Assembly: GCF_003044035.1 (NCBI RefSeq) | Contig: NZ_NVQC01000025.1 | Location: 1 to 28,106 of the forward strand | Length of the DNA: 28,106 bases | Direction: 5' to 3' | From: Candidatus Methylomirabilis limnetica | GTDB lineage: Bacteria; Methylomirabilota; Methylomirabilia; Methylomirabilales; Methylomirabilaceae | Part shown: in pieces, positions 6,835 to 27,143 of the stretch | Numbering within the stretch: position 1 is the stretch's first letter | How the letters are laid out: every line of letters starts with the position of its first letter | Position numbers and translations under genes: made by a program | The notes under the pieces: generated by a model | Database searches by the model: none | What the model was told of the DNA's origin: nothing | What the model saw: the letters and a program-made list of their open reading frames with translations, nothing else

Positions 6835-7437
6835 ATGAAAGAGCGCCTGAGTGCCGATAAGCGCCGACAGCAGATTGTCGAGGCGGCGGTGGAGCTGTTC
6901 TCGCGGAAGGGATTCAGGGGGACCAGGACGCGCGAGATTGCAGAGGCCGCCGGCATCAGCGAGGCGATGATCTACAGGCACTTCGCGACCAAGCGTGAGC
7001 TGTATTCTGCGATCATCGAGGCGAAGTCCGCGACAGAGGAGCTGCTGGCGAGCGCAGCAACAGCCGCACAAGGGAAAGATGACGCCGGCGTCCTGCGGGC
7101 GGTGGGTCTGAAGATGATCGAGCAGACGGTGCAGGATCCGAGCCTCATGCGGCTCCTCCTTTTCAGCGCGCTCGAAGGGCACGAGCTGTCCGAGATCTTC
7201 TTCGAATCCCGAGTCAAAAGGCTGCATCAGTTTCTCAGCCGCTATATTCGTAGACGGATCAAGGAGGGGCGATTCCGGTCGATGGACGCGCTGGTCGCCG
7301 CGCGTGGTTTCATCGGAATGATTGTCCATTACCTGCTGATCCATAAGCTGTTCGGGGTGAAACGCCCTCGCCGCTCCTCGCCGGAAGAGGTGGTGGAGCT
7401 TTTCGTATCCGTCTTTCTGAAGGGGATCGCGCGATGA
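6835..7437 (+). CDS. TetR/AcrR family transcriptional regulator
   Basis: N-terminal HTH signature RRQQIVEAAVELFSRKGFRGTRTREIAEAAGISEAMIYRHFATKRELY. Its stop overlaps the next start (ATGA). Confidence 0.9.
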   Translation: MKERLSADKRRQQIVEAAVELFSRKGFRGTRTREIAEAAGISEAMIYRHFATKRELYSAIIEAKSATEELLASAATAAQGKDDAGVLRAVGLKMIEQTVQDPSLMRLLLFSALEGHELSEIFFESRVKRLHQFLSRYIRRRIKEGRFRSMDALVAARGFIGMIVHYLLIHKLFGVKRPRRSSPEEVVELFVSVFLKGIAR

Positions 7438-12358: not shown

Positions 12359-12640
12359 ATGGAACTGACGCGGCGGCAGGAGATCATGACGATGCTCCGG
12401 GAGGGCGAGTGGACGTTGGACGAGCTGGCCATGAACTTCGTGGTGTCAAAAAAGGTGATCATCGATGACCTCGAGCATATCGCCCGCTCTGTCCCAAGGC
12501 CCTCTCGCCTCCAGATCCATCCCCCAACCTGCGAGGTGTGCGGCTATCGCTTCAAGGACCGGGCGAAGTACAACGATCCTTCCCGGTGCCCAATGTGCAA
12601 AAACGAACACCTTCGCTCCCAACGATTCCAGATCGTCTGA
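12359..12640 (+). CDS. Small transcriptional regulator: HTH domain fused to a C-terminal Zn-ribbon (COG3357-like)
   Basis: 93 aa. The N-terminal winged-helix-like segment is RRQEIMTMLREGEWTLDELA. Two CxxC pairs (CEVCG, CPMCK) form the ribbon. Confidence 0.7.
   Translation: MELTRRQEIMTMLREGEWTLDELAMNFVVSKKVIIDDLEHIARSVPRPSRLQIHPPTCEVCGYRFKDRAKYNDPSRCPMCKNEHLRSQRFQIV
12469..12583 (+). repeat. 115-bp direct repeat, copy 1 (inside the HTH/Zn-ribbon gene)
   Basis: 113 of 115 nt are identical to 23783-23897 (counted by hand). The mismatches are tac/ttc and aac/aat. Confidence 0.95.
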
Positions 12641-12709
12641 TGAGATGTACCGTAACGTCGCTTTGAATCCACTGGGGGTTCATTCCCCGCGGCTTACCAC
12701 GAGTTCGTC

Positions 12710-12768: not shown

Positions 12769-12807
12769 GACGGGCCAGAACAGAAGACGATACCCTGCAG
12801 CTTACTG

Positions 12808-12851
12808 CGGGGTAGTTCATTCAGCCTCGCAAGAAAGTAAGACTAAGGGAG
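12808..12851 (+). ncRNA. Candidate preQ1-I riboswitch in the queF leader
   Basis: A 5-bp P1 (CGGGG 12808-12812 / CCUCG 12825-12829) encloses a 12-nt loop starting UAGU. An A-rich tail follows, then ACUAAGGGAG. ACUA can pair with the loop UAGU to form a pseudoknot, and the tail overlaps the SD 10 nt before the ATG. The tail is longer than in textbook examples. Confidence 0.35.
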
Positions 12852-13220: not shown

Positions 13221-13563
13221 ACGCGCTACGGTGGACGGGTAGGGGAGGATCTCTTCTATCCGGGCTACTTCAAGTATTCTAATCGCGACAACCTGGTGAC
13301 CGCCACCGGGCCGGGAGGCCGCCGATGATTGGAGGGCATACCGGGGCGGCTTACGGCTTGACTGGGAGCCTTCCACCCGCGATACGGTGACAGTTCAGGG
13401 CGACCTCTATAAGGGCGATTTCGGCCAGACGCTCACGCTTCCCTCCCTCCTCCCCCCCTTCTCGGGCAGCTCCGACAGCCTGGGCGATTTTGCGGGGGGC
13501 AACCTCCTCACACGCTTCAGGCATAGGGCGGCTGATCGCAGGGAGACCACCCTCCAGTTTTAC
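13221..13563 (+). pseudogene. Internal fragment of a TonB-dependent-receptor-like beta-barrel gene, frameshifted
   Basis: Two frames read RYGGRVGEDLFYPGYFKYSNRDNLV..ATG and DDWRAYRGGLRLDWEPSTRDTVTVQGDLYKG...GGNLLTRFRHR...TLQFY. This resembles a TBDR barrel segment from memory. A frameshift lies near 13298-13325. The fragment has no start or plug domain and stops at the IR-like sequence. Confidence 0.4.
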
Positions 13564-13597
13564 GGGTCTTCTCCCGAGTGAGTGGGTAAAAATCAGG
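13564..13597 (+). repeat. ISL3-like terminal sequence, copy 1 (GGGTCTTCTCCCGAGTGAGTGGGTAAAAATCAGG)
   Basis: About 26 of 33 nt match 23697-23730 in the same orientation. A GGCTCTTC-type start is what I recall for ISL3-family IRs. An ISL3-like transposase fragment lies 480 bp downstream. Confidence 0.45.
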
Positions 13598-13628
13598 TAA
13601 TAAATGGCACATGGCAGGAAAGTGTGGG

Positions 13629-14051
13629 TTACAGTTTGGACCTCCTCCCCCCTTGAGGGGGAGGATTGAGGTGGGGGGTCAAGACTTGTCGGATCTCCTC
13701 CACGACCGAAACGGGATGGCGTAACAGATCGTGGTCCCAAAACCGAACGACACGATATCCATGGCTCTGCAACCAGCCGGTCCGTTCCGTATCGTAGTTG
13801 AGCTGTGCCGCATGCTGCCCTCCATCCACTTCAACGATCAGTTTGCGTTCCAAACAGGCGAAATCCACAATGTACGGGCCCATCGGGTGCTGCCGCCGAA
13901 AACGATACCCGTCAATCTGCCGTAGCCGGATGCGACGCCACAGAGCCCTTTCGGCATCCGGAGGATCCTTCCTGAGAACGCGAGCCCTTCTGCTCACCCC
14001 CCCATCCTCACCTTCCCCCTCGCAGGGGGGAAGGGACACATCCACCAACAC
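13629..14051 (-). CDS. DUF559 (Vsr-like) endonuclease domain protein
   Basis: RARVLRKDPPDAERALWRRIR...GYRFRRQHPMGPYIVDFACLERKLIVEVDGGQH...RTGWLQSHGYRVVRFW is the DUF559 signature. Both ORF ends run into G/C hairpin repeats (13641-13678 and 13995-14039), so the true start may be internal. Confidence 0.8.
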   Translation of the reverse strand: MLVDVSLPPCEGEGEDGGVSRRARVLRKDPPDAERALWRRIRLRQIDGYRFRRQHPMGPYIVDFACLERKLIVEVDGGQHAAQLNYDTERTGWLQSHGYRVVRFWDHDLLRHPVSVVEEIRQVLTPHLNPPPQGGRRSKL

Positions 14052-14074
14052 CTTCCTGCCAAGAGCCTAATGAA

Positions 14075-14260
14075 TTGTCGAAGGTGGGCTCCGGACAAGG
14101 GTTTACTGGGTTTGAGGTGATGCGAAAAAGTGGTCTGTTCTACGAATACGAAAAAGGAGAAGGCTTGACCTTTTACACGAAGCGGTTTGCCTTCTTTGTG
14201 GGACGACGCTGCCGGGCCTCCACCCTGCAGGACGTGGCCAACAAGCTGCATCTGAACTGA
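14075..14260 (+). pseudogene. ISL3-family transposase N-terminal fragment
   Basis: TKRFAFFVGRRCRASTLQDVANKLHLN resembles the HTH_Tnp_ISL3 segment (TKRF..fv...c...t..dVA..l.l.W). It is truncated at both ends. Confidence 0.45.
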
Positions 14261-14262
14261 AA

Positions 14263-14484
14263 TGTCAGGGGACGATGCGGATCATCAGTGTCATCGAGGA
14301 CCCGTCGGTGATCCGGGACCTCCTCAATCATCTGGGACTCTGGCCGGCAAGCACAAGACCACCACCAAAAGCTCACGCCACACCAATCTGGGAATACGCC
14401 GCTTGCGATCTCCAACTTCAAACACACGCTGAGACTATCTACGGCGACCCCGACTACACCTGGGATGAAGACAGACAGCCATAA
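14263..14484 (+). pseudogene. IS91-family (Y2 rolling-circle) transposase C-terminal fragment, copy A
   Basis: KCQGTMRIISVIEDPSVIRDLLNHLGLW..RPPP...DPDYTWDED resembles the Zn-finger tail and extreme C-terminus of IS91-family transposases, as I recall them. It abuts the ISL3 fragment with no intervening start. Confidence 0.55.
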
Positions 14485-14596
14485 CGCATTGTGAAACAAA
14501 GGCGTGCAGGAGAGGTCTGTCTGTATTGTGCTCACAAATGCCCTCTTGCCGGGTGACTCGACCACAAGATGAGCTGATTTCTCAAAAGAGCGGTCC
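14290..14596 (+). repeat. ~305-bp direct repeat, copy A (IS91-like 3' coding end plus ~110 nt downstream)
   Basis: Aligns colinearly with 16256-16560, at roughly four-fifths identity by eye. Confidence 0.85.
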
Positions 14597-14657
14597 CCGA
14601 TCCACCTTCCTTACCCAACCGCATCGCCAGCCCCTGTTTTTCGATGCACAATATCTG

Positions 14658-14686
14658 TTGACAAGCAACAACAGCCTTCCTATACT
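14658..14686 (+). promoter_or_regulatory. Sigma70-type promoter, module copy A: TTGACA-17 nt-TATACT
   Basis: Hexamers and spacer were counted directly. It lies 144 nt upstream of the GGDEF-PilZ ATG and is part of the triplicated module 14618-14745. Confidence 0.6.
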
Positions 14687-14829
14687 TCCAGCCATCGAAA
14701 GCAATGCCTTATCAAAATAAATAAATCAAACAAACAAACAAACAATGTTACGCTCACCAGGCTGCCCGCTTGATAGGGGCGACCGCCACCCCTTTCGTTA
14801 AACGCGCACCCGCAGGAAGCTTAGTCTTT

Positions 14830-16014
14830 ATGGAGAATTTAACCGAGTTCGAAGCTTTCAAAGATCGCGTCATCTCGCTAGTGTCAGAGGACTCGCTCAA
14901 CCGGAAATTCCTCACTGAGCAGATCAACGAAATTTTCCTCCAGCGCGTCGATGGCTGCCTCTATTCCCGGCTTCTGGCGCTCTTCGTCCACTTGGACTTT
15001 GATGAAGCCGAGGCCCAGCGCCACTGGGTGAGCATACTCGATAATTACAACTACTTTCATGAGGTACTGCGGCGCAAGGTGGGGCTGCGGGTGGCGATGT
15101 TTGACTACTTTCTCAATAGTAATCAGCTCCTCCAGAACCCGATCCTCGTCGAAATCCATCTGTTCCAGCAGGCCACCTTTATGGCCATGCAAGACCACCT
15201 CACCAATCTCTTCAACCGCCGCTATTTCGATATCGCCCTGGAAAAGGAAATCAAGCGCTCCGCGCGCTGGCAAACAGATTTCTCGTTACTGATGATCGAC
15301 CTGGATAATTTCAAACAGGTCAACGACGTGCACGGCCACCTCTTCGGGGATAAGGTGCTCAAGGATCTCGCCGCAGTGCTGAAACAGCTCAGCCGGGAAG
15401 AAGATACCGTCTGCCGCTACGGGGGCGAAGAGTTTATCGTCTTGCTGCCGGGCACCACCGCGAGCGGCGCGCTTCACTACGGGGAGCGGGTGCGGGCCGC
15501 CTTGGCAGAAAACGATTTTTTGTATCGCCATCACATCACCTTCAGTGGCGGGATCGCCACCTTTCCCGCCGATGGCAGCGAGGCGGTGACCTTGCTCAAG
15601 GGTGCCGATGTCTCGCTTTATCAAGCCAAGTTTTCCGGAAAAGATTGCATCGTCAAAAGTTCCCAGGAACGTCGCCATGGCAAACGCCATCCCCAAACCT
15701 GGCAGATCAGCTACCAGCCGCTGGAGCAGACCTTCACCACCCCTGAGATTCACGAGGCTTACGCTCAGGACGTCTCACTCGGCGGCGTCAGATTTGAAAT
15801 GGCGCAAGTGTTTTCCCTGGACGACAAATTATTGCTCCACATCAAGCTCCCCGAGCTTCAGGGCGTCATCGTTGTCGGGAAGGTCGCCTGGATCCGAAAA
15901 CTGGAGTCGAACCGCTACGAATATGGCCTGCAGTTTCACGATCTGAAAGCCGAGCAGGTGGAAAATTTTAAAAAGGCTTTACCTGGAGGCGAAGCTTCCA
16001 TTCCAGATTTTTGA
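14830..16014 (+). CDS. Diguanylate cyclase (GGDEF) with intact I-site, fused to a C-terminal PilZ domain
   Basis: GGEEF at 15421-15435, preceded by RxxD (REED, from 15394). The guanine-specifying D is present (HLFGDKVL). The PilZ motifs RRHGKR (15670-15687) and DVSLGG (15769-15786) are both present. The start is taken at MENLTEF; the track start 14770 is a TTG. Confidence 0.9.
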   Translation: MENLTEFEAFKDRVISLVSEDSLNRKFLTEQINEIFLQRVDGCLYSRLLALFVHLDFDEAEAQRHWVSILDNYNYFHEVLRRKVGLRVAMFDYFLNSNQLLQNPILVEIHLFQQATFMAMQDHLTNLFNRRYFDIALEKEIKRSARWQTDFSLLMIDLDNFKQVNDVHGHLFGDKVLKDLAAVLKQLSREEDTVCRYGGEEFIVLLPGTTASGALHYGERVRAALAENDFLYRHHITFSGGIATFPADGSEAVTLLKGADVSLYQAKFSGKDCIVKSSQERRHGKRHPQTWQISYQPLEQTFTTPEIHEAYAQDVSLGGVRFEMAQVFSLDDKLLLHIKLPELQGVIVVGKVAWIRKLESNRYEYGLQFHDLKAEQVENFKKALPGGEASIPDF

Positions 16015-16129
16015 GCTACATGCGCGGCCAACAACCGCAGTGCGTCCTCTGCTTTTTTCTAACCACTTTTCTCATTGTATATTTAATTAACTGATGCGTT
16101 CATTTCGTTAAGGGTCGATACCCCGCGGC

Positions 16130-16449
16130 TTGCCGCGTCCGTGTGATCTCGATATGGCAGAAGGTGTACTCCTGGCTTCGTATGCAACTCATCCGTCTGC
16201 CCTGAAGGTATGCGGCCAGCGCCGTTGGATACCCATCAGCTTGCCGCGGGGAGGCGTCATCAAGGACCCGTCGGTGATCCGGGTTCTCCTCACTCCTCTG
16301 GGACTTTGGCTGGCAAGCGTAAGACCGCCACCACACGCTCACGCCCCGCCATCCGGGACTACACCGCTGTCGATCGAAAGCTTCACACGCATGTGGAGAC
16401 TCTCTACGGCGACCCCGACTACACCCGGGATGAAGACATGCAGTCGTGA
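16130..16449 (+). pseudogene. IS91-family transposase C-terminal fragment, copy B (disrupted)
   Basis: ..VCGQRRW..VIKDPSVIRVLLTPLGLWLASVRPPP is followed, in a shifted frame, by ETLYGDPDYTRDEDMQS. It is homologous to copy A at the nucleotide level. Confidence 0.5.
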
Positions 16450-16560
16450 CGCATCGTGAAACACAGGCGTGCAGGAGAGGCCTGTCTGCATGGCGCTCAT
16501 AAATGCCCTCTTACCGGGTGATTAGACCACAAGATGAGCTTATTACTTAAAAGAGCAGTC
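16256..16560 (+). repeat. ~305-bp direct repeat, copy B
   Basis: Colinear with 14290-14596. Confidence 0.85.
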
Positions 16561-16633
16561 ATATACATCTATCTTAGCAAAAATCATCGTAATATACTGC
16601 GATTAGATGTATAATATCATTGCACAATGATTA

Positions 16634-16662
16634 CTGATAGAAACAAACAGCCTTACTATACC
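16634..16662 (+). promoter_or_regulatory. Module copy B, promoter-like: CTGATA-17 nt-TATACC
   Basis: This is a degenerate version of copies A and C at the homologous position. A perfect TATAAT also occurs at 16610-16615. Confidence 0.35.
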
Positions 16663-16790
16663 CTAGCCAGCAAATGTAATACATTATCAATACACCACAA
16701 TCATAAAAATCAAATCAAAGGTCAGGTTAGCTTGAGAATGTCCGCTCAATAGGGGTAGAATAAAGACCCAGTTGAGAGGAGGCAAGAGGC

Positions 16791-17215
16791 ATGGTTGAAG
16801 GCAAGAAGCGAATGACGGCAACGCGGAAGCTGGAGGTATACATAGAGATGTGCTGGAAGAACGCCAACGCGGGAGAGATCCTGCGGCGGTATTGGCTCCA
16901 CCTGAACGACCTCCGGCGGATCGAGATGTTGGTGGAGCTGGCAGCCCTTACGGCGCTCAATGGGAGCCGCCGAAGGCCTGGGGCAGATCCCCAGGCGGAC
17001 AGAGAATATGCCTAACTCGCGGCAGAGCTGGCGCAAACGGAGAATACTCTGGCCGAGTTGACCGTGGAGTACACCCTGCGCAAAAAAAGCGAGCGCTCGG
17101 GTTGGAAGGGTTCCTCGATGGCATCTACCTCCATAGCGGAGTGCGGGAGGCGCTGATCATGGCGACCAAGGACGCCATCGCGGGCGGGTTGACCGAGCGG
17201 GCGGGTAGAGGTTAT
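16791..17215 (+). pseudogene. IS3-family OrfA-like (HTH) transposase remnant with internal stop and frameshift
   Basis: GEILRRYWLHLNDLRRIEMLVELAALTAL then stop, then AELAQTENTLAELTVEYTLRKK and GVREALIMATKDAIAGGLTERAG in other frames. It is GC-rich and ends exactly where the AT-rich DNA begins. Confidence 0.5.
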
Positions 17216-17239
17216 GCCTCTGAGCTTTTACAGGAGGAA

Positions 17240-19153
17240 ATGAAATTGACCGTCGATAACCCTCTATATAATAGTAGGGTAATAGATACCTATATAAAGT
17301 TTGTTAAACAAAAATATGATTACGTAAATATCAGTGAATTATTAAGCTACGCAAAGATTGAGTCATATCAGGTTATAGACGAAGGCCACTGGTTTACTCA
17401 GAAACAGATAGACCTGTTTTATGAAAGGCTGGAAAAGCTAACTAAAAATAAAAACATAGCAAGGGAAGCTGGAAGATACGCGGCATCATCCGAGTCCCTG
17501 GGAGTAATGAGACAGTATATGTTGGGGTTTGTTGGCCCTGCAAAAGCTTATCAACTAATAGGAAAATATGCCCCTAAATTGGCCAAATCGTCAATTTATG
17601 AATCAAAAATAAAAACCTCTAATGGAATTGAAATTACTGTCACGCCGCTAAAAGGCGTCCACGAAAAACAATTTCAATGTGATAACAGAATCGGGTATTT
17701 TGAAGCCATTGCCTTAGCATTTAACTATAGTCTCCCTGAAATCAGACATCCTGAATGTGTCTTCAAGGGTGGGAAAGTTTGTCATTATATTATTTCATGG
17801 AAACAATCGTATTTCTCCTTCTGTAAAAAAATCAGAAATTATGCTGCCCTGTTTTTTCTCGCCGTAAGTCTCGGTGCTTCTTTCATGTATTCTTTGTCTA
17901 CGCTGATAACAATTGTACCATTTTCTGTTTTTGTTGTTCTTTCATTAACTCTCTATGCTGCAATTATCGAAAAAAAGGAATTAAATACAGCCATAGACAA
18001 CCTCAAGGTTTCGTCCGATGAGCTCATGGAACAGGTTGACGTAAATTATAACAATTCCCTAATGCTAAGTGAAATTGCACTATCTCTTAGCAAACAAATG
18101 GACATCGATATCATTTTATCTAATGCTATGAAAGTCTTGGAGGTCCGCCTTTGTTATGATCGTGGCGTGATTCTTTTAACAAATGAAGACAAGTCCCTGT
18201 TATTATTCCGCGCAGGTTTTGGTTATACTCCCGAGCAATTAAACGTTTTGAAGAACACTCAGTTTCACTTAAATATGACTGAGTCAAAGGGGCTGTTTGT
18301 TGTCTCTTTTCGTGAAAAGAAACCATTTTTAATAAATGATTTACAAGAGATAGAGGCCCACCTTTCATCTCACAGCCTGGAATTTGCAAAAAAAATGGGG
18401 GCATTATCCTTTATCTGTTGTCCAATAATCTACGAAGGAGAGTCCCTGGGAATTCTTGCCGTAGACAATACAAAGACAAAAAAACCGTTGGTCCAGAGTG
18501 ATATTAGTTTGCTTATGGGCGTTGCGCCTGAAATTGGGATGAGCATTCATAACTGCTTACTCCTGGAAGCCAAAGAACGACAATTTGAATCGATAATACA
18601 CGTCTTAGCGGCTAGCATTGATGCTCGAGACCCACTGACAGCAGGTCATTCCGAAAAGGTTACAGAATACGCCATGGGAATATGTCACGAATTAGACATA
18701 CCGAAGGAAGACCGAGAAATCATTCGTATTGCCTCATCACTGCATGATTATGGCAAGATAGGTATTAAAGATTCTATCTTAATGAAACCAGGCAAACTGG
18801 ATCCAGAAGAGCGTAAGGCAATAGAAACTCATGCGGACAAAACCAAGAAAATATTGGAACGGGTACACTTTGAAGGCGTTTATGGGGAGATTCCTAATAT
18901 TGCGGGATCACACCATGAAAAAATTGATGGCAGTGGTTACCCAAAGGGACAGAAGGGAGAAGATATTCCTCTGGGTGCTAGGATAATTGGTGTAGCTGAC
19001 TTTTTCGAAGCTATAACAGCAAAACGTCATTACAGGGACCCGATGCCCATCGATGTAGCGTTTCAACTACTCAATGAGGAGGTAGGAAAAAGTTATGACA
19101 AAAATATTGTTGATGCTTTTATTAGATATTATAACGGGAGGTTAAAGACTTAA
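17240..19153 (+). CDS. Membrane-anchored sensor protein: unknown N-terminal domain, 2 TM helices, GAF, HD-GYP c-di-GMP phosphodiesterase
   Basis: HD..HDYGKIGI..HHEKIDGSGYPKG motifs. The GAF-like block is SEIALSL...GILAVDN. The TM pair is YAALFFLAVSLGASF / IVPFSVFVVLSLTLYAAII. The start is taken at the ATG after AGGAGG; TTG 17246 is an alternative. The track ORF start 16850 fuses the IS3 remnant in frame. Confidence 0.85.
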   Translation: MKLTVDNPLYNSRVIDTYIKFVKQKYDYVNISELLSYAKIESYQVIDEGHWFTQKQIDLFYERLEKLTKNKNIAREAGRYAASSESLGVMRQYMLGFVGPAKAYQLIGKYAPKLAKSSIYESKIKTSNGIEITVTPLKGVHEKQFQCDNRIGYFEAIALAFNYSLPEIRHPECVFKGGKVCHYIISWKQSYFSFCKKIRNYAALFFLAVSLGASFMYSLSTLITIVPFSVFVVLSLTLYAAIIEKKELNTAIDNLKVSSDELMEQVDVNYNNSLMLSEIALSLSKQMDIDIILSNAMKVLEVRLCYDRGVILLTNEDKSLLLFRAGFGYTPEQLNVLKNTQFHLNMTESKGLFVVSFREKKPFLINDLQEIEAHLSSHSLEFAKKMGALSFICCPIIYEGESLGILAVDNTKTKKPLVQSDISLLMGVAPEIGMSIHNCLLLEAKERQFESIIHVLAASIDARDPLTAGHSEKVTEYAMGICHELDIPKEDREIIRIASSLHDYGKIGIKDSILMKPGKLDPEERKAIETHADKTKKILERVHFEGVYGEIPNIAGSHHEKIDGSGYPKGQKGEDIPLGARIIGVADFFEAITAKRHYRDPMPIDVAFQLLNEEVGKSYDKNIVDAFIRYYNGRLKT

Positions 19154-19175
19154 TCAAATAGTTGACAGATTTAAA

Positions 19176-19976
19176 TCAAGCAACAGGCTTACGTCCCCTG
19201 CAACAAATTACTGGCGTGTAAGTAAATCTTCTCGGATCGATAAAAAATCTATTAAATTCCCCTAAAAACTCTTCGTATCCTCCATCATATTCTTCAAAAT
19301 TGAAATTTACCTTCTTTGAGATAACTTCAAACTTCTTTGTCCAGTTGTAGGCATCAATGTCGTTTAATTCCCCAAATATCAGGTGATGAGCGGTAACATC
19401 CATGTTTATATCCTGATAGCCAAGATCATACAGGAAAGAATAAAGTTTTCTCCCTACATACGGATCGAAGTCTGCATTTTCCTCTAAATATTTTATAACG
19501 GCAAAAATGGTTCTTTCCAGCCTTGGTGAAATGCCAAAATGGCTTAAACAATTATGGTCTAAATCAACCAGGCACAAAATACCACCTGGCTTTATAAGCT
19601 TAGTTACATTTTTAACGATGTCAAAACTGCTAGAAAGGTAATACTCTAAAGCAAAACGCATCCAGACAAAGTCAAACATCTCCTCACCGCCAAGGGACTT
19701 TCGTATATCTCTACGCCTAAATGTTATCCCTTTATCGTTATAGCGTTCTTTAGCATATTCAATTCTCTTTTCTGAACCATCGAATCCGATTGCCACTCCA
19801 CCAGGTTGAACTAATTTATGTAATATAGAAGTTACTTTTCCTGAACCACAGCACATATCAGCAACGTGCATACCTGGCTTAATACCAGCCCAAAGAGCTT
19901 GCTGCTCAACAACTCTACTATTTGTTTTAATATCCAGACGGAAAGCCTCTTCTTCATTTTCCATTAAGTATTCCAT
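19176..19976 (-). CDS. Class I SAM-dependent methyltransferase
   Basis: Motif I VADMCCGSGKV, an acidic loop GFDGSE, and motif IV-like LIKPGGILCLVD. The substrate cannot be inferred. Confidence 0.8.
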   Translation of the reverse strand: MEYLMENEEEAFRLDIKTNSRVVEQQALWAGIKPGMHVADMCCGSGKVTSILHKLVQPGGVAIGFDGSEKRIEYAKERYNDKGITFRRRDIRKSLGGEEMFDFVWMRFALEYYLSSSFDIVKNVTKLIKPGGILCLVDLDHNCLSHFGISPRLERTIFAVIKYLEENADFDPYVGRKLYSFLYDLGYQDINMDVTAHHLIFGELNDIDAYNWTKKFEVISKKVNFNFEEYDGGYEEFLGEFNRFFIDPRRFTYTPVICCRGRKPVA

Positions 19977-20109
19977 AACCCCCCATCCTTTATGCTCTCA
20001 GGTGGTTTAGATCGATACCGGAAATATTTTTGTGATTATATCACTACTTACCATCCCCTGCTTTTCGATGTACAATATCTATACAAAATAATACCATGTA
20101 AAATAACTA

Positions 20110-20138
20110 TTGACAACTAAAAACAGCCTTACTACACT
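20110..20138 (+). promoter_or_regulatory. Sigma70-type promoter, module copy C: TTGACA-17 nt-TACACT
   Basis: Counted directly. It lies ~60 nt upstream of the ATG at 20199 and is part of the conserved module 20046-20190. Confidence 0.55.
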
Positions 20139-20198
20139 TAAAGCCATCAAAAGCAATGCCTTATCAAATAAAACAATCAACCCTGATCAGAGGTGGCA

Positions 20199-22382
20199 AT
20201 GGATAAACTCCAAAGAATTGCTAAGCTTTCCTACTATACCGACCCAGATAAGGGACTGGAAGAAAGAAAGAAGATCTCCAGAAAACGCCTAAGAAACACC
20301 CTGAACCATATTAATTTTCAAACTGGCACAATACTTATAAATTTCAAACACCTAAAGTATGATACTGTCCTATCTCTTCAAGCCAATCCACAGCCATGTC
20401 TTGAAAATAGTTTGGAATGTTTGTGGATTGAACCAGCAGGACTAAAACAGAAATTGAGTTCTTACAAATTTCTAAATTTTCTACTTACAGATGATCTAGC
20501 GCTTATTCTTGTTGAAGCTGCCTTAAAGGAAATAAGTGAGGAAGGAATTAGCTTCAGCCTCCCTGAAATTTGTTACGAGCTTAGCTATCGCAAGGTAAGA
20601 AGGCATTTATGCAAGGGTATTCAGGTTGATCTCATTCAAAACAGTGTAATATTTTACGGAACTCTTTTGAACTTTAGCGCTGTCTCGTTCTGTATAGAAG
20701 TATCAACTGAGCCATCCCAACCATTTCATTGGGTTAATCCTGAAGATACGGTATATGTTACATTCAAAAATAAACAGGATATCCTGTATTCAGGAGAATG
20801 CAGGATAATCCGACAAACGTATGGCCAAAAAAAGAGCGTCTTTATAGTAGAACCTGTAAACGATCAGATACGCAGATTTAAGACAAAAGAGTTTCGAAGC
20901 TCTCGACACAAATTATCACCCTCACCAAATATTAACTTTATACATCCTTTTACTCAGAAACTTATCAACATGGAAGTTGAAGATCTGACAGGTTCTGGTT
21001 TTTCTGTTGAGGAAGACATAGACAATGCTGTGCTTTTGGTCGGAATGATTATCCCGGAACTGTACATAGAAATAGGCTATGATTTTAAAATCAGATGCAA
21101 GTCCCAGGTTGTTAATAGAAATGTTCATACAGCCAACGATTGCAAAACTCTCGCGAAATGTGGAATGACCGTTTTAGATATGGACATCCAAGAACAAGTA
21201 AGACTTTCGAGTTATTTACAGCAGGCGGAAAATAAAAAGGCCTTTGTTTGCAACAGGGTGGACATAGATGCGCTGTGGAAGTTCTTTTTCGAGACAGGCT
21301 TTATCTATCCTAAAAAATATGCTCTTATGTCCGCTGACAAGGAAAAGTTTAAAGCAACTTATGAGAAGCTTTATGTCGAAAATCCCCATATAGCCAGACA
21401 TTTCGTATGCCAAGATAAAGGTATAATTCAAGCGCATGTATCGATAATCCGTTTTTATGAAGAGACATGGCTACTTCACAACCATGCCTCCCTCAGATCA
21501 GGACATGGCAATACCGGACTTGTTGTGATGAGGCAGGTTGAACGTTATATAAACGATTTTCACCGTCTCTATTCAGCACACATGAATTTTGTCGGTTGTT
21601 ATTTCAGACCAGATAATAAGTTTCCTATGCGTGTGTTTGGAGGGTGTGCCAGAGAAATCAATAATCCAAAGGCATGTTCCGTTGATTCCTTTGTCTATTT
21701 CTGTTTTCCAAGAGCTGGCACACAACCTGATCTACCGGAAGCATTGACATTAACTAAAACCCAGCCCGAAGACCTTTTAGAGCTGGAAACTTTTTATGAA
21801 TATGAATCCGGAGGTCTGATGCTTCAAGCCCTGGATTTAACGCCGGAAATGATTGATAATGATAATCTCAGTAAAGAATTTAACAAGCTTGGTTTCAAAA
21901 GGGAAAGGATTCTTTTTTCTTTGAAGAAAAATGATGTTCTAAGGGCAGTTATAGCGGTAAATGTCTCTGATATCGGCTTGAACCTGTCTAACCTGACGAA
22001 TTGCTTCCACGTTATTATCCTGGACGCTAAAGATCTCCCCGTTAACATAATTTATATCTGCCTCTCCATGCTATCAAAATATTATGAGCAGCAGGATGAA
22101 ATTCCTGTTTTATTGTATCCCGTTAGCTATGCGCAAAGCCACTCCGTAGCCTATGAAAAAATACATACCCTATGGATGTTGAATACACAATATGGTGATC
22201 AATACTTCAAATATATGGAGAATTTATTTCACCATAGGCATGATGATGAAGAGGCTCAATGTTCTATAGCTTACCCCGATATGGACGATACGAGAAGGCG
22301 GAGTGAGAAGCATGGGAGGTCGTTGCGCATTATCACTAAGGATGGGATTGACTCCCAACATGAAAACGAAGACGGACGCTAA
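20199..22382 (+). CDS. Large cytoplasmic protein: tandem degenerate PilZ-like domains plus an unrecognised ~390-aa C-terminal region
   Basis: Three motif pairs are visible: RKVRR(H) then NFSAVS 23 aa later (20589-20687); RSSRH then DLTGSG 26 aa later (20892-20999); and an N-terminal RKRLR with EISEEG. No TM helices or catalytic motifs were recognised. GAGG lies 5 nt before ATG 20199; the track start is GTG 20193. Confidence 0.5.
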   Translation: MDKLQRIAKLSYYTDPDKGLEERKKISRKRLRNTLNHINFQTGTILINFKHLKYDTVLSLQANPQPCLENSLECLWIEPAGLKQKLSSYKFLNFLLTDDLALILVEAALKEISEEGISFSLPEICYELSYRKVRRHLCKGIQVDLIQNSVIFYGTLLNFSAVSFCIEVSTEPSQPFHWVNPEDTVYVTFKNKQDILYSGECRIIRQTYGQKKSVFIVEPVNDQIRRFKTKEFRSSRHKLSPSPNINFIHPFTQKLINMEVEDLTGSGFSVEEDIDNAVLLVGMIIPELYIEIGYDFKIRCKSQVVNRNVHTANDCKTLAKCGMTVLDMDIQEQVRLSSYLQQAENKKAFVCNRVDIDALWKFFFETGFIYPKKYALMSADKEKFKATYEKLYVENPHIARHFVCQDKGIIQAHVSIIRFYEETWLLHNHASLRSGHGNTGLVVMRQVERYINDFHRLYSAHMNFVGCYFRPDNKFPMRVFGGCAREINNPKACSVDSFVYFCFPRAGTQPDLPEALTLTKTQPEDLLELETFYEYESGGLMLQALDLTPEMIDNDNLSKEFNKLGFKRERILFSLKKNDVLRAVIAVNVSDIGLNLSNLTNCFHVIILDAKDLPVNIIYICLSMLSKYYEQQDEIPVLLYPVSYAQSHSVAYEKIHTLWMLNTQYGDQYFKYMENLFHHRHDDEEAQCSIAYPDMDDTRRRSEKHGRSLRIITKDGIDSQHENEDGR

Positions 22383-22398
22383 GAGAGGGCGTTTTACT

Positions 22399-23697
22399 AT
22401 GAATCAAAAAGTATTATGGAGAGGAATAGCTGTTTATGTACTTATATTCTTTGTCTTTTGTACTACCTCAAATGCTTATGGCTCTGGCTTTGCAATCTTT
22501 ACACAGGGTGCATCGGCTTTAGGTCAGGCAGATGCTGTAATTGCGCACGCAGATGACCCCTCGGCGATTTTCTTCAATCCCGCATTGATTAATAAACTCG
22601 AAGGAACACAAATAGAACTAGGAACAACCCTGCTCTTCCCTTCGCAGGAATTTAAAAGTGCTGCAACGGGAAATTCATTTCGAACAGAAAGTCAGGTGTT
22701 TTACCCACCCACAGTTTTTGTTACCCATAAGTTCAATGATAAGATCAGCGCGGGTTTGGGTGTCTTTAGTCCTTTCGGACTAGGGATTAACTGGGGTAAT
22801 AGCTGGGAAGGAAGATACATAGCAACCGACTCAGAAATGATAACTTTTAATATCAATCCCGTAGTTTCATACAAGGTAACACCTGATTTTACATTTGCTG
22901 CAGGGGTGGATTTCCTTCTCCTTGACACAACGTTAAAAAAGAGTCTAAACCTGTCGGGCTTGGCGAGCGCTGTCCCTAGTCTTGGCCTTCCTGCCGGCCT
23001 TCCGGACGGTAGACAAAAATTTAAGGGTGATGGACATGGTGTTGGATATAATTTTGGAATTCTGTATGACGTCAATAAAGACATTTCGTTCGGCGCCTCA
23101 TACAGAAGCGAAATCAAAGTGGACATTGATGGTGATTCCACCTTTACTCTTCCGAGCCCCTCACTCGGAGCTCTATTTCCAAATACTTCCGGCAATTCAC
23201 ATATTACGCTTCCACGAGTAGTCCAGGCTGGCGTCGCTTACAAAGGTTTTAATCGACTGACGCTAGAAACTGGTATGAGATGGGAAGGCTGGTCATCATT
23301 CAAAGAATTAAGGATCAACCTCGATAAACCTGTTTTAGGCAGTACCACGTCCATCACAGAAAAAAACTGGCATGATACGTACTCTGCAAATCTTGGGGTA
23401 AAATATCAACTGAATGACACGGTTGCATTGCTTGCCGGATACTTATATGGAGGAAATCCAGTACCTGATAAGACATTTGACCCTATTGTCCCAGATGCGA
23501 CTACACACCTTTTCACCGTTGGAACAAATGTAAAATATAAGAACATGAGAATTGACCTATCATATGGTTATCAATTGCTGGAGGGGAGGAGTAAAAACAA
23601 TACGGTTGCTGATCCATTGAATCCTTTCAACAACGCCAACGGAAGGTATAATACAGATATTCATCTGTTCGGTATCAGTCTAACGTATAAAATATAG
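22399..23697 (+). CDS. Outer-membrane transport protein, OmpP1/FadL/TodX family
   Basis: Signal peptide [15 protein letters not shown], then [37 protein letters not shown] (the FadL-family N-terminal hatch signature) and an alternating beta-strand pattern. The start is taken at MNQKVLW, with an RBS-like AAGAGAGGG (22381-22389) 9 nt upstream. It begins 17 nt after the previous stop. Confidence 0.85.
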
Positions 23698-23730
23698 GCT
23701 CTTCTCCCAAACGAGTGGGTAGATTTTCAG
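23697..23730 (+). repeat. ISL3-like terminal sequence, copy 2 (GGCTCTTCTCCCAAACGAGTGGGTAGATTTTCAG)
   Basis: It starts on the last base of the OMP TAG stop and marks the AT-rich/GC-rich boundary. It is homologous to 13564-13597 in the same orientation. Confidence 0.45.
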
Positions 23731-24704
23731 TCTTTTTAGATCTCCGGGAGCATGCACGTAAGGATTTTCAGGCGCAGGTACTCCTCGAGCATATCGCCCG
23801 CTCTGTCCCAAGGCCCTCTCGCCTCCAGATCCATCCCCCAACCTGCGAGGTGTGCGGCTATCGCTTCAAGGACCGGGCGAAGTTCAATGATCCTTCCTAC
23901 GAGGTCTGCCGCCGCCTGAAACAGGAGCCGCCGACCCGCTTGATACCGATCGTCTTGCTCACGGCTCTAGCGGCGGAAGAAGCCCGGATCCGAGGGATCG
24001 AGGCGGGGGCTGATGACTTCATCACAAAGCCGTTCAGTCGGGCGGAGTTGAAGGCCCGCGTCCGCTCGCTGCTCAGGCTCAAGAAGTTTACCGACGAGTT
24101 GGAGCACGCCGAGGCCATGTTGCTCGCGCTGGGCCGAACCGTAGAGGCAAAGGACCCGTACACCCAGGGACACTGCGAGCGACTGGCGGCCTACTCGGTC
24201 GCCCTTGGACGGAAGCTTGGCCTGCCACCGGAGGAGCTGACAGCCCTGGACAGAGGCGGGACCCTGCACGATCTGGGGAAGATTGGGATCCCGGATGCGA
24301 TTCTGTTGAAACCCAGCGGCCTCAGCGAGGTGGAGTGGGTGATCATGCGCGAGCATACGGTGATCGGCGAGCGAATCTGCCAGTCGCTACGATCATTACA
24401 GCGAGTTCTGCCGATCATCCGCCATCACCATGAGCGATGGGACGGGAGCGGTTACCCTGATGGCCTTGCGGGCGAGGCGATCCCTCTCACGGCGAGAATC
24501 CTGCAGGTCGCTAACATCTTCGATGCGCTGAGGTCCGCGCGACCATACAAGCCTGCCTGGTCGCTACAAACCGCGTGCGATACCCTGCGGGATGAGGTGG
24601 CACGCGGCTGGCGTGATCCAGGCGTGGCTGAGCCATTCATCGAGCTGGTCGAGCTGGGCGGGCTGTCGGAGGCCCCGGAGCCTGCCGGTGGAGCAGGGGT
24701 ATAA
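23715..24704 (+). CDS. Chimeric, N-terminally decapitated response regulator-HD-GYP (RpfG-like) protein
   Basis: Residues after the repeat junction start mid-receiver ([24 protein letters not shown]), so the phospho-acceptor Asp region is missing. The HD-GYP domain is intact ([22 protein letters not shown]). The 5' ~60 codons derive from the IR-like sequence plus the Zn-ribbon gene duplicate. Confidence 0.65.
23783..23897 (+). repeat. 115-bp direct repeat, copy 2
   Basis: 113 of 115 nt are identical to 12469-12583. Confidence 0.95.
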
Positions 24705-24827: not shown

Positions 24828-25370
24828 ATGGGGCTGGACGGTGCGGCGAGTCTCAAGCTGCCTCGGGAGGAGGGCGTGGTGACGGCCGCCCTCGAACAGT
24901 TTCGGGTTCAGGCGGACGCGAAGGGTGTGGCGCTTGCGCTGCGGCTGGAACAGGCGCCGGACAGCCTGGTGGCTGACCCGCTCCGCTTTAAGCAGATTCT
25001 GCACAACCTCTTAGGCAACGCCGTGAAATTCACCCCAGCGGGCGGTTCCATTACTGTCACTGCGAAGATAGTTTCGCGTTCACAACCCGAAACCCTAGAC
25101 CCTCAACCCTATACCCTCGACCCCGGTGATTTCGTAGAAATTACCGTCTCGGATACCGGCATCGGGATTAAGGCTGAGGATCTGGGTCGGCTCTTCCAAG
25201 AGTTTACACGGTTAGACAGTTCCTTCGCAAAGCCGCAGCAGGGGACTGGCCTGGGTCTTGCCATGGCCAAACGCCTGGTCGATCTCCACGGAGGGTCCGT
25301 GACCGCCACCTCTCCCGGAGAAGGTCAGGGAAGCACCTTCACTGTCACCTTGCCGCTGCGGCCGTCGTGA
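24828..25370 (+). pseudogene. Histidine kinase C-terminal fragment (HATPase_c only; H-box/DHp missing)
   Basis: N-box HNLLGNAVKFT, G1 DTGIGI and G2 GTGLGLAMAK are present. The frame is closed by a TAG at 24807, and no phospho-His region lies upstream. A 42-nt heptamer repeat sits in frame at 25082-25123. Confidence 0.7.
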
Positions 25371-25464: not shown

Positions 25465-25917
25465 CTAATCATCACTTAACACCAGAATATCCAGCTCAGA
25501 GATCCGTTTGAGCTGACTATCGTTCCCTATAAAACCGGTAGCGCCCGCTTCGATGGAGGTTGCCACCAGGATGGCATCAGGTGTTTTCAGTTGGTATTTG
25601 GCGCGAAGCTGGGCACCCAGGTCAGCGATCCCGATCGATAATTCGATCCATTGGAGGTGAGGGTACGTTGTGAGGAGGACATAGAACTGATTGACAAGCT
25701 CGTCATTGTTCTCTCGGTAGGGTTGTACCAGGACCTCAAGAAGAGAGAGCGTGGAACAAATCCCGGTATTGCGTCCCGCTTCAATCGATCTGAGTATCTT
25801 CTCCGCTAATCGATGATACTCCGGGTGTTCCTCGATGAGGTAGATCAGGAGATTTGAGTCCAGCCCGACCCTGGGGTGCCTTCGCAGGAAGCCCTCGAGA
25901 CGCTGGGCGCTTACCAC
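25465..25917 (-). CDS. vapC: PIN-domain toxin (VapC family)
   Basis: It has the LDSN acidic start, the SxLSLLEV block and a C-terminal NDSQ acidic motif. It overlaps the upstream antitoxin gene by 7 nt. Confidence 0.8.
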   Translation of the reverse strand: MVSAQRLEGFLRRHPRVGLDSNLLIYLIEEHPEYHRLAEKILRSIEAGRNTGICSTLSLLEVLVQPYRENNDELVNQFYVLLTTYPHLQWIELSIGIADLGAQLRAKYQLKTPDAILVATSIEAGATGFIGNDSQLKRISELDILVLSDD

Positions 25918-26129
25918 GCACGGCGTTCCTTTGACAGGTAATCGGAAGAGTAGAGTCCGCGGCCCTTTCCCGCAAGAGCCTTTGTGTAACTTTTGGGTGT
26001 GGGCAACAGGATGGTAATCCCTCCTTTGACGACAACCACGAGTTCATCGCCCCCCTTGACCCCCATGGCCTCGCGCGCTTCTTTGGGAAGGACAATCTGG
26101 TTTTTTGTCGAGAGTTTGATAAAAGGCAT
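25911..26129 (-). CDS. vapB: AbrB/MazE/SpoVT-type antitoxin
   Basis: 72 aa. KNQIVLPKEAREAMGVKGGDELVVVV is a swapped-hairpin (SpoVT/AbrB) signature. Confidence 0.8.
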   Translation of the reverse strand: MPFIKLSTKNQIVLPKEAREAMGVKGGDELVVVVKGGITILLPTPKSYTKALAGKGRGLYSSDYLSKERRAW

Positions 26130-26234
26130 TGGTTCCTCCAGAGATTGATATTCGCTTTACTTTATCATAGAAGGTAAAGCGACGCAACACGGAGCCTGTC
26201 CTGCAAACCCCTTGTTGTGCTTCGACGGGCTCAT

Positions 26235-26310
26235 GCTTCGACAGGCTCAGCAGAACGGAAAACATCAATCTTTTCAATGCCTATACCGTTCGCCCTGAGC
26301 GTGTCGAAGG
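26235..26310. repeat. MITE/REP-like inverted repeat (GCTTCGACAGGCTCAGCAGAACGG ... CCGTTCGCCCTGAGCGTGTCGAAGG)
   Basis: The arms are near reverse complements separated by ~27 nt. An extra half-copy lies at 26219-26233. Confidence 0.7.
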
Positions 26311-26385
26311 GTGAACGGGAGTTTATGGGACAGGCTCCACGCTAAGCTAATCCCATTTGACACTGCACGAGCTGTGCGCATTGGA

Positions 26386-27143
<758 letters not shown>

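Follow-up and report, generated by a model that had tools for sequence, protein, structure and literature searches.

In the rolling-circle model of transposition that applies to IS91-type insertion sequences (IS) and their ISCR relatives, carried DNA lies beyond the ter side of the element, in the region upstream of its transposase gene, rather than downstream of the ori end. The IS91 transposase has two catalytic tyrosines, whereas those of ISCR elements have one. Outward promoters that read into an adjacent host gene are also borne by other IS, such as ISEcp1, ISAba1 and IS10 (pOUT). The oriIS is situated 3' of the transposase gene; in ISCR1, this region of 232 bp contains outward promoters that drive downstream genes (PMC6218425), and the terminal 82 bp of the right end are sufficient for function in IS91 (PMC13181058). 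Here we analysed a 28,106-nt stretch of the Candidatus Methylomirabilis limnetica genome (contig NZ_NVQC01000025.1, positions 1 to 28,106; the whole stretch is hereafter called the window), in which three sequences related to these elements, copies A, B and C, lie between genes. A first-pass annotation of the same DNA had described truncated IS91-family ends and found them consistent with serial rolling-circle capture of genes. We favour a different history, to which we would give a probability of roughly 70%: the three copies are decayed relics of one IS91/ISCR-type IS, which were inserted into intergenic DNA of a resident gene cluster and were later truncated at their 5' sides. The copies, and the gene fragment to which the first of them is fused, are as follows (E-values of the copies from nhmmer).

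14257-14715, plus strand: IS91-family copy A, model positions 1205-1670 (full-element model, E = 7.5e-75; subfamily model, 4e-143)
~16195-16693, plus strand: IS91-family copy B, model positions 1199-1670 (full-element model, E = 1.3e-46; subfamily model, 3e-82)
20051-20168, plus strand: IS91-family copy C, terminal ~95 model positions plus a 25-nt insertion (subfamily model, E = 4e-8)
14075-14256, plus strand: N-terminal fragment of an ISL3-family transposase gene, fused to copy A (Pfam HTH_Tnp_ISL3, E = 7e-4, below the family cut-off)

The E-values of the three copies, obtained with DNA profiles built from relatives, are far beyond chance. Copy A comprises the last ~74 transposase codons (stop codon at 14482-14484) and a complete 231-nt oriIS-side end; its translation reads ..KCQGTMRIISVIEDPSVIRDLLNHLGLW..GDPDYTWDEDRQP up to the stop codon (the C-terminus is also given as DPDYTWDEDRQP). 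In copy B, which is more decayed and carries insertions, the peptide of copy A is split over two frames by a 1-nt deletion; the insertion at 16241-16255 is half of a palindrome resembling repetitive extragenic palindromes (REP), and the promoter described below is degenerate (CTGATA..TATACC). Homology of copy B is robust from 16256 and weak at 16195-16255 (12 of 1000 shuffles reach the score, p of about 0.01), and its extension upstream of 16195 was not significant (scores reached by 160 and 739 of 1000 shuffles). Copy C ends 31 nt 5' of the start of a gene for a 727-aa protein. All three copies have a common terminus and are variable only at the 5' side.

The duplication of ~305 bp on which the first-pass annotation was built was recovered by a repeat search of the window: positions 14290-14385 are 85% identical to 16256-16351, and positions 14386-14595 are 83% identical to 16351-16560, the second block being offset from the first by a 1-nt indel. 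Overall, 14290-14596 and 16256-16560, which cover the last ~65 transposase codons and DNA 3' of the stop codon, are ~84% identical; a three-way alignment agrees with the repeat search and places a shorter stretch in common near 20100. Two 5'-truncated copies and a third that consists of the end only, all in direct orientation, are thus present as had been described. It is likewise true that the window holds no intact transposase gene: with five full-length relatives as queries, tblastn detected C-terminal pieces only and no other part of the gene, and an apparent extension of copy A back to 14149 proved to be a spurious gapped extension of the alignment upstream of 14257. Searching the window for the left-end palindrome of the element returned a chance-level match only, and no terIS-like end was found. 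Because they have neither a transposase nor a ter end, the relics cannot move on their own. The fusion of copy A to an ISL3 fragment is also real, with the junction placed at 14251-14258; the fragment is 76% identical over 29 aa to an annotated ISL3 transposase (tblastn, E = 2e-6). An Rfam scan of the whole window at gathering thresholds gave no match.

The identity of the element had to be taken from its full-length relatives, since the models of Pfam and NCBIfam, against which the fragment peptides gave no match, do not reach the C-terminal tail. Scans of reference genomes and metagenomes with the C-terminal peptide yielded 100 loci (given L-numbers below, as are the contigs of orthologous genes), many of which carry an open gene of ~450 aa ending in the fragment peptide; the named loci all belong to Syntrophales (Syntrophus, Smithella, Syntrophaceae). 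The full-length proteins of L001, L004, L005 and L008 match, above the family cut-offs, both Y2_Tnp (PF04986, 6e-23 to 7e-21) and the N-terminal zinc-binding Zn_Tnp_IS91 (PF14319, 1e-19 to 5e-17), and full-length relatives score 174-178 bits against NCBIfam NF033538, 'IS91 family transposase' (cut-off 125). As these models do not cover the last ~70 codons, membership of the window copies follows from their 60-86% identity to the C-termini of the full-length relatives. The assignment of the peptide to the C-terminus of an IS91-family transposase is therefore upheld, and its motif could be aligned with that of ISCR1. This type of IS is common in Syntrophales and is characterized by a ~450-aa HUH transposase and a 231-nt right end. 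A search of 5.8 billion proteins with the fragment peptide returned 17 proteins only, all of them short (58-128 aa), some extending N-terminally into ..VRYYGYYSN..RGKR..WARLIQKIYEVDPLVCPKCQGTMRIIS. We considered whether they represent a conserved small gene and rejected this: they are open reading frame (ORF) calls inside truncated or decayed copies, and the orthologue of copy A at locus L105 is frameshifted, with a ratio of nonsynonymous to synonymous divergence (dN/dS) of 0.83.

In the full-length relatives the element measures 1.65-1.73 kb, and conservation continues past the stop codon for ~231 nt, through TTGACA-N17-TATACT, to ...AAAAG(C/G)AA..CTTATCAA, beyond which the flanks differ at every locus. 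The first-pass annotation was right in counting DNA past the stop codon as part of the element, but the unit does not stop ~110 nt after it and continues to CTTATCAA. Since this conservation extends through the promoter-like sequence to the shared terminus, what had been described as a separate 'promoter module' between each copy and its cargo is the oriIS-side terminal part of the IS. The annotation had named two findings that would overturn it, a peptide from another family and downstream DNA foreign to the element; the peptide is of the IS91 family and the downstream DNA is element. The left end of full-length copies has a TTGACA promoter and a perfect palindrome, AGAACGnnCGTTCT. Left and right ends are dissimilar to each other, each with a subterminal palindrome, and, judged by position, we infer that the right end acts as ori and the left end as ter. 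At the right end an inverted repeat brackets the promoter box (per-sequence stem test: mean best stem 7.25 versus 5.77 in shuffles, reached by 0 of 300), with some compensatory changes between subfamilies, and it is probably the counterpart of the subterminal palindrome in the ori ends of the IS91 family. A count of covariation in fixed columns was dropped in favour of the per-sequence test because the subfamilies are out of register in the alignment. The GTTC/CTTG tetranucleotides that the annotation had proposed to look for at the junctions are not there: neither GAAC/CAAG nor GTTC/CTTG abuts the ori ends, the right flanks (55 distinct ones) are variable and lack GAAC/CAAG, and 20 full-length copies have no direct repeat between left and right flanks; no empty insertion site was recovered. 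The invariant terminal TCAA may be the equivalent of the target tetranucleotide.

Several further observations concern the ends of the element. The LexA-controlled transposase promoters of ISCR1, ISCR2 and ISCR8 lie in their terIS regions (PMC13393415). In full-length copies of the element described here, outside the window, the transposase promoter (TTGACA..TA(T/C)TAT) has AGAACGnnCGTTCT between its -35 and -10 boxes (e.g. L001 379-440, L004 332-400). This palindrome has the form of a LexA box of the Gram-positive type, GAAC-N4-GTTC; it could equally be a ter hairpin with a GTTC cleavage site. Internal-deletion derivatives with both ends occur at L022, L026, L017, L033, L056, L083, L086 and L027; examples are L083, in which model position 1171 follows directly on the left end, and L033, in which position 584 abuts 1586. 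Their appearance is that of non-autonomous forms of this IS91-type element, similar to miniature inverted-repeat transposable elements. The DNA right after the terminal ...TTATCAA often reiterates TCAAT/ATCAA-like units (e.g. L006, L015, L016, L058, L064, L092), the right flank of copy A (14716-14750) is (CAAA)n, and tandem partial ori ends are found at some loci (L070/L071, L095); target preference or slippage at the nick site may be responsible. The copies of L035-37 and L070/71 are cut at model position 1043 and have a 24-nt left flank in common. At first they gave the impression of a mobile truncated derivative, but the 24-nt flank seems to be the end of another element.

The promoters carried by the right ends in the window are predicted at the following positions.

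14658-14686, plus strand: sigma-70-like outward promoter in the end of copy A, TTGACA-17-TATACT (11 of 12 consensus matches)
20110-20138, plus strand: promoter in copy C, TTGACA-17-TACACT (10 of 12 consensus matches)

The site in copy A, ~145 nt upstream of the start codon of a gene for a GGDEF-PilZ protein, is the best one in 13900-20400, and the two promoter-bearing relics, A and C, lie 31-115 nt upstream of co-oriented genes. Among 69 distinct ends, conservation is highest in the two promoter hexamers (-35 and -10) and in the last 20 nt, while the spacer is variable. In 21 of 25 truncated copies (binomial p = 0.0009) the ORF that follows is co-oriented, compared with 8 of 14 full-length ones, although the ORF calls behind these counts are crude. 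We infer that relics A and C may be able to supply transcription into the downstream gene; such promoter use would be reasonable by analogy, with its precedent in ISCR1.

The genes that surround the relics are listed here.

14830-16014, plus strand: gene for a GGDEF-PilZ diguanylate cyclase (Pfam GGDEF 6e-44, PilZ 9e-12)
17159-19153, plus strand: gene for a GAF-HD-GYP protein of the cyclic di-GMP phosphodiesterase type (Pfam GAF, HD_5)
19176-19976, minus strand: gene for an S-adenosylmethionine-dependent methyltransferase (Pfam Methyltransf_31/25/11), syntenic in L104
20199-23697, plus strand: gene for the 727-aa protein (no Pfam match) and gene for a FadL/TodX-type outer-membrane transporter (Toluene_X, 4e-70)

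The second of these is overstated by a mechanical 767-aa ORF (16850-19153), as gene calls start at 17159. The description of the supposed cargo as signalling genes fails behind the third end, where the 727-aa protein without a Pfam match is followed by the FadL/TodX-type porin. Orthologues of the GGDEF-PilZ protein, traced to contigs L104-L108, are 83-92% identical (dN/dS 0.31), and their genes, where the contig reaches far enough (L104, L106), are always followed by the same GAF-HD-GYP gene, whose neighbour order is alike in these two loci. In L104 the order GGDEF-PilZ, GAF-HD-GYP, methyltransferase is that of the window. Copy A is missing there, an IS3-type remnant being found instead, and the stretch homologous to the window begins at 14766, ~65 nt ahead of the start codon; at the position of copy B there is only a ~70-nt degenerate end remnant, and in L106 this site likewise holds no more than a short remnant of the end. 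A candidate ori-end remnant beside the methyltransferase gene of L104 was not significant (Smith-Waterman score reached by 253 of 1000 shuffles). When the proteins of the supposed cargo were searched by tblastn against the 100 IS-bearing loci, no close homologue was found beside an IS end; the only matches, in L018, L040 and L042, are 33-36% identical.

The neighbouring genes thus appear to be residents and not captured cargo, because L104 keeps their order without copy A, because they are not linked to IS ends in the 100 other loci, and because mobilized DNA lies beyond ter. Copy A, in turn, gives every appearance of being an old, immobile and neutrally decaying relic: together with its ISL3 junction, which is identical in all three, it is orthologous in L105, L106 and L108; its synonymous divergence (dS, 0.156) is close to that of the neighbouring gene (0.173), its dN/dS is 0.83 as against 0.31, and the L105 orthologue has frameshifts and stops. 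Copies A and B differ in age, as indicated by their identity to the subfamily consensus (89.5% and 74%, respectively) and by their private changes (16 in A, 88 in B); to each other they are 75.6% identical over 455 nt. On these grounds the following sequence of events may be proposed. The copies would have been inserted at different times into intergenic DNA of the cluster formed by the GGDEF-PilZ, GAF-HD-GYP, methyltransferase and 727-aa/FadL genes, with the ori end of each facing the downstream gene and the site of B being the oldest. Later deletions would have taken away the transposase gene and the left end, and in the case of copy A the deletion would have fused an upstream ISL3 copy to IS position ~1205.

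Serial capture, as had been proposed for this region, would instead make the genes passengers, picked up by one-ended transposition from a downstream ori end past a missing ter, so that the array would read [ori A]-GGDEF-[truncated transposase-ori B]-GAF-HD-GYP/methyltransferase-[ori C]. Three ori ends in direct orientation without a ter end in the window are what such a 'sandwich' would leave, and the transposase motifs resemble those of ISCR1. For IS91 and IS1294, one-ended transposition has been documented at 1-14% (PMC13181058), and for ISCR28 a resistance gene has been described as sandwiched by two oriIS in sequence (PMC12772301). Moreover, IS ends are found where synteny breaks: the block formed by ISL3 and copy A has different left neighbours in the window, L105 and L108, and the pair of 727-aa and porin genes, which adjoins the same methyltransferase gene in L104 (7371-9631), is inverted there relative to window positions 19977-23697, with end C sitting at this break. 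But the left break is at the ISL3 tip and not at an IS91 end; the order of the three genes is kept in L104 without copy A and with only the ~70-nt remnant at the site of B; the genes are never beside IS ends in the 100 other loci; copy A has been static long enough to reach a dS of 0.16 together with its neighbours; and, as B and C have neither transposase nor ter between 'cargo' and ori end, an extra deletion would be required for each unit. We therefore consider capture of the intervening genes very unlikely.

Another alternative concerns the way in which the copies lost their 5' parts. Rolling-circle transfer starting at ori could stop early at cryptic terminators, such as the hairpin in the CPKC codons, much as 5'-truncated long interspersed nuclear elements (LINEs) arise; In that case A and B would represent either two insertions of this kind or a non-autonomous derivative of ~470 nt that was mobilized in trans. 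The breakpoints of copy A (1205), copy B (1199), L007 (1203), L027 right (1202) and L099 (1201, at the contig edge) do fall within 7 nt, and this site is the loop of the hairpin TCCCCTG..CAGGGGA, whose bottom strand folds at -10.9 kcal/mol (z = -2.9). Across loci the 5' truncation points are scattered, and their density over the 250 nt that precede the search anchor is ~4 times that found further upstream. Among bystander fragments in the fetched loci ~6 keep the ori end and none the ter end only, and solo ends of 80-100 nt recur (L019, L033, L066, L095, copy C of the window), matching the 82 bp of the IS91 ori; those of the four loci begin at the model positions of copy C (1572-1592). Yet the bait by which the loci were fetched was a C-terminal peptide, so that the sample is skewed towards ori-side fragments, and the truncation pattern could also stem from this anchor, from deletion hot spots or from selection. 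The left junction of copy A lies inside an ISL3 gene whose remainder is absent beyond the ori end, for which a deletion is simpler; the truncation points have no tetranucleotide or flank motif in common; the start of copy B is uncertain; and the published IS91 accounts cited here describe no premature termination. Truncation by the transposition mechanism itself is in our view unlikely. The same degree of doubt applies to a corollary, namely that the last ~100 nt (inverted repeat, outward promoter and nick-site terminus) are a self-contained unit that is preferentially spread or kept, so that abortive transfer seeds 5'-truncated and solo ori ends, of which those upstream of co-oriented genes would persist as portable promoters. 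If true, IS91-type elements would rewire host transcription by abortive transposition, as a bacterial analogue of 5'-truncated LINEs.

The apparently common truncation point of A and B would also be explained if B were a local copy of A, or if both went back to a single copy that had been truncated beforehand, through segmental duplication or gene conversion within this chromosome. Consistent with this, 24 of the 40 differences of A from the family consensus are common to B (~3.5 expected by chance), and at the site of B no more than a short end remnant is found in L104 and L106. The common changes can simply mark a host-specific IS lineage, however, and 88 private changes in B against 16 in A are unexpected for neutral copies of equal age; the flanks of A and B have nothing in common, and the genes downstream of them are unrelated. 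Either form of local duplication is accordingly highly improbable.

Several observations weigh against the reading we prefer, that of independent insertions decayed in place. Random deletions do not predict that A and B should be cut at apparently the same point of the element (1205 and 1199), with the qualification that the first 60 nt of B are weak. In principle, copy A could have been lost from L104 when the IS3 remnant found at this spot took its place, and the B-site remnants of L104 and L106 may not be orthologous to copy B of the window. As for the promoter, truncated and full-length copies do not differ significantly in orientation bias (Fisher p = 0.12), and among the orthologues of A the segment from the -35 box to the end is 77-85% conserved, no better than other parts of the relic, which gives no sign of selection for the promoter.

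The region also bears scars of other mobile DNA, among them the following two.

13563-13587, plus strand: probable left terminal inverted repeat of the ISL3 element whose transposase fragment lies at 14075-14256, a 25-nt block (GGGTCTTCTCCCGAGTGAGTGGGTA, GG(G/C)TCTTCTCCC.A..GAGTGGGTA)
16791-17100, plus strand: pseudogene remnant resembling OrfA of IS3-type elements (stops in the translation, no Pfam match, family by appearance only)

The 25-nt block, which is probably an ISL3 inverted repeat of the GGCTCTTC type, recurs in the same orientation at 23696-23720 (21 of 25 positions identical, score reached by 0 of 2000 shuffles), and a weaker match lies beside the methyltransferase gene in L104 (~7396-7420, 18 of 1000 shuffles). 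A gene for a DUF559 protein (Vsr-like endonuclease fold; 13629-14051, minus strand) is found within 13606-14072, with the ISL3 inverted repeat on one side and the ISL3 gene fragment on the other. This unit is a discrete insertion of ~467 nt, bounded by an imperfect direct repeat (TAATAAAT/TAATGAAT); its flanks, GGTAATAAAT and TTGTCGAAGG, adjoin each other in L105 and L108. A small mobile or selfish gene unit is suggested by this. The IS3-like remnant consists of a 74-aa ORF (helix-turn-helix) followed by an out-of-frame leucine-zipper-like sequence; from 17016 onward it is conserved upstream of the GAF-HD-GYP gene in L104, and its 3' part also in L106. Pieces of REP-like palindromes (CCCCGCGGCTTGCCGCGGGG family) are located at 16118-16138, 16238-16252, 12687-12701 and 12797-12812, and two halves with GCTTGCCGCG in common lie on either side of the weakly matching 5' part of copy B. 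Between 12.4 and 24 kb, where insertions of the ISL3, IS3-like, DUF559 and REP-like kinds are all present, recurrent IS traffic and decay are thus the local norm. A 115-nt piece (12469-12583) of an intact PF0610-like gene (12359-12640) is repeated with 98% identity at 23783-23897, 11.3 kb away, where it cuts a second ISL3-type end (23696-23782) behind the porin gene and is fused to a 5'-truncated response-regulator/HD-GYP gene, whose receiver domain lacks its initial half. A Phd/YefM antitoxin gene and two genes for PIN-domain toxins, of type II toxin-antitoxin modules, occupy the minus strand at 25465-27113, downstream of a histidine-kinase fragment (24828-25370).

How, then, does this locus compare with the systems outlined at the beginning? 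A gene sandwiched with, and travelling with, a downstream oriIS into varied contexts, by which ISCR capture arrays are recognized, was not observed here. The array would accordingly be a graveyard of IS ends in a rearrangement-prone stretch of chromosome, and not a natural ISCR-style platform for the capture of signalling genes. What it has led to is the definition of an abundant, apparently unnamed IS91/ISCR-like element of Syntrophales with both its ends, its internal-deletion derivatives and its solo ends, which should help to annotate the short 'hypothetical' ORFs of 58-128 aa in metagenomes.

Several features are shared with ISCR1. Both encode an HUH transposase with an N-terminal zinc domain whose zinc motifs align; the HUH motif is NPHCHIL here and NVHYHML in ISCR1, the single-tyrosine LxRY motif is ENLARY here and ERLCRY in ISCR1 (in an alignment made without IS91 itself), and the C-terminal motif CxxC..(M/V)(R/K)(I/V)I..IE(D)P.VI..IL.HL (here MRII, HLGL) is common to the two. 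The non-coding ori-side end has 231 nt here and 232 nt in ISCR1, as checked on a plasmid record, and in both this end carries outward promoters (predicted here; the POUT promoters PCR1-1 and PCR1-2 in ISCR1) facing a variable downstream gene; frequent loss of the ter side is also common to the two. The two proteins are nevertheless only 26% identical (E = 8e-37), and the model of ISCR clade Ia (NF052416) is matched with 133-142 bits against a cut-off of 925. The terminal sequences differ as well (...GTTCTTATCAA versus ...CTTCCTATACCC), the hosts are anaerobic Syntrophales, without integron or resistance genes, and the promoter is near consensus (TTGACA-17-TATACT), whereas those of ISCR1 are weak matches.

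With IS91, IS801 and IS1294 the element has in common the family model, two unlike ends with subterminal palindromes and the lack of an evident target duplication; the ori end is the essential one and always retained, and the solo fragments of ~80-100 nt may be set beside the 82 bp that suffice in IS91. It differs from them in having no GAAC/CAAG (5'-GTTC/CTTG) at the ori end and no orf121. The closest element in a cultured organism, present at 14 places on plasmid pIAE1 of Trichlorobacter (Geobacter) lovleyi, is 58% identical at the amino acid level and has a similar downstream layout, TTGACG..TATAC and then GAAAAAGCAAATTCCTAT, but another terminal sequence, and it belongs to another subfamily; the record annotates it as 'transposase' only. 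ISEcp1, ISAba1 and IS10 resemble the present relics in that a terminal promoter of the IS reads into a host gene and in that relics may persist after loss of the transposase. They are, however, DDE elements with inverted repeats, while the promoter predicted here sits in the nick-site end of a rolling-circle element. Conserved, near consensus, outward-facing and POUT-like, this promoter hints at the use of such ends as promoters outside the setting of antibiotic resistance.

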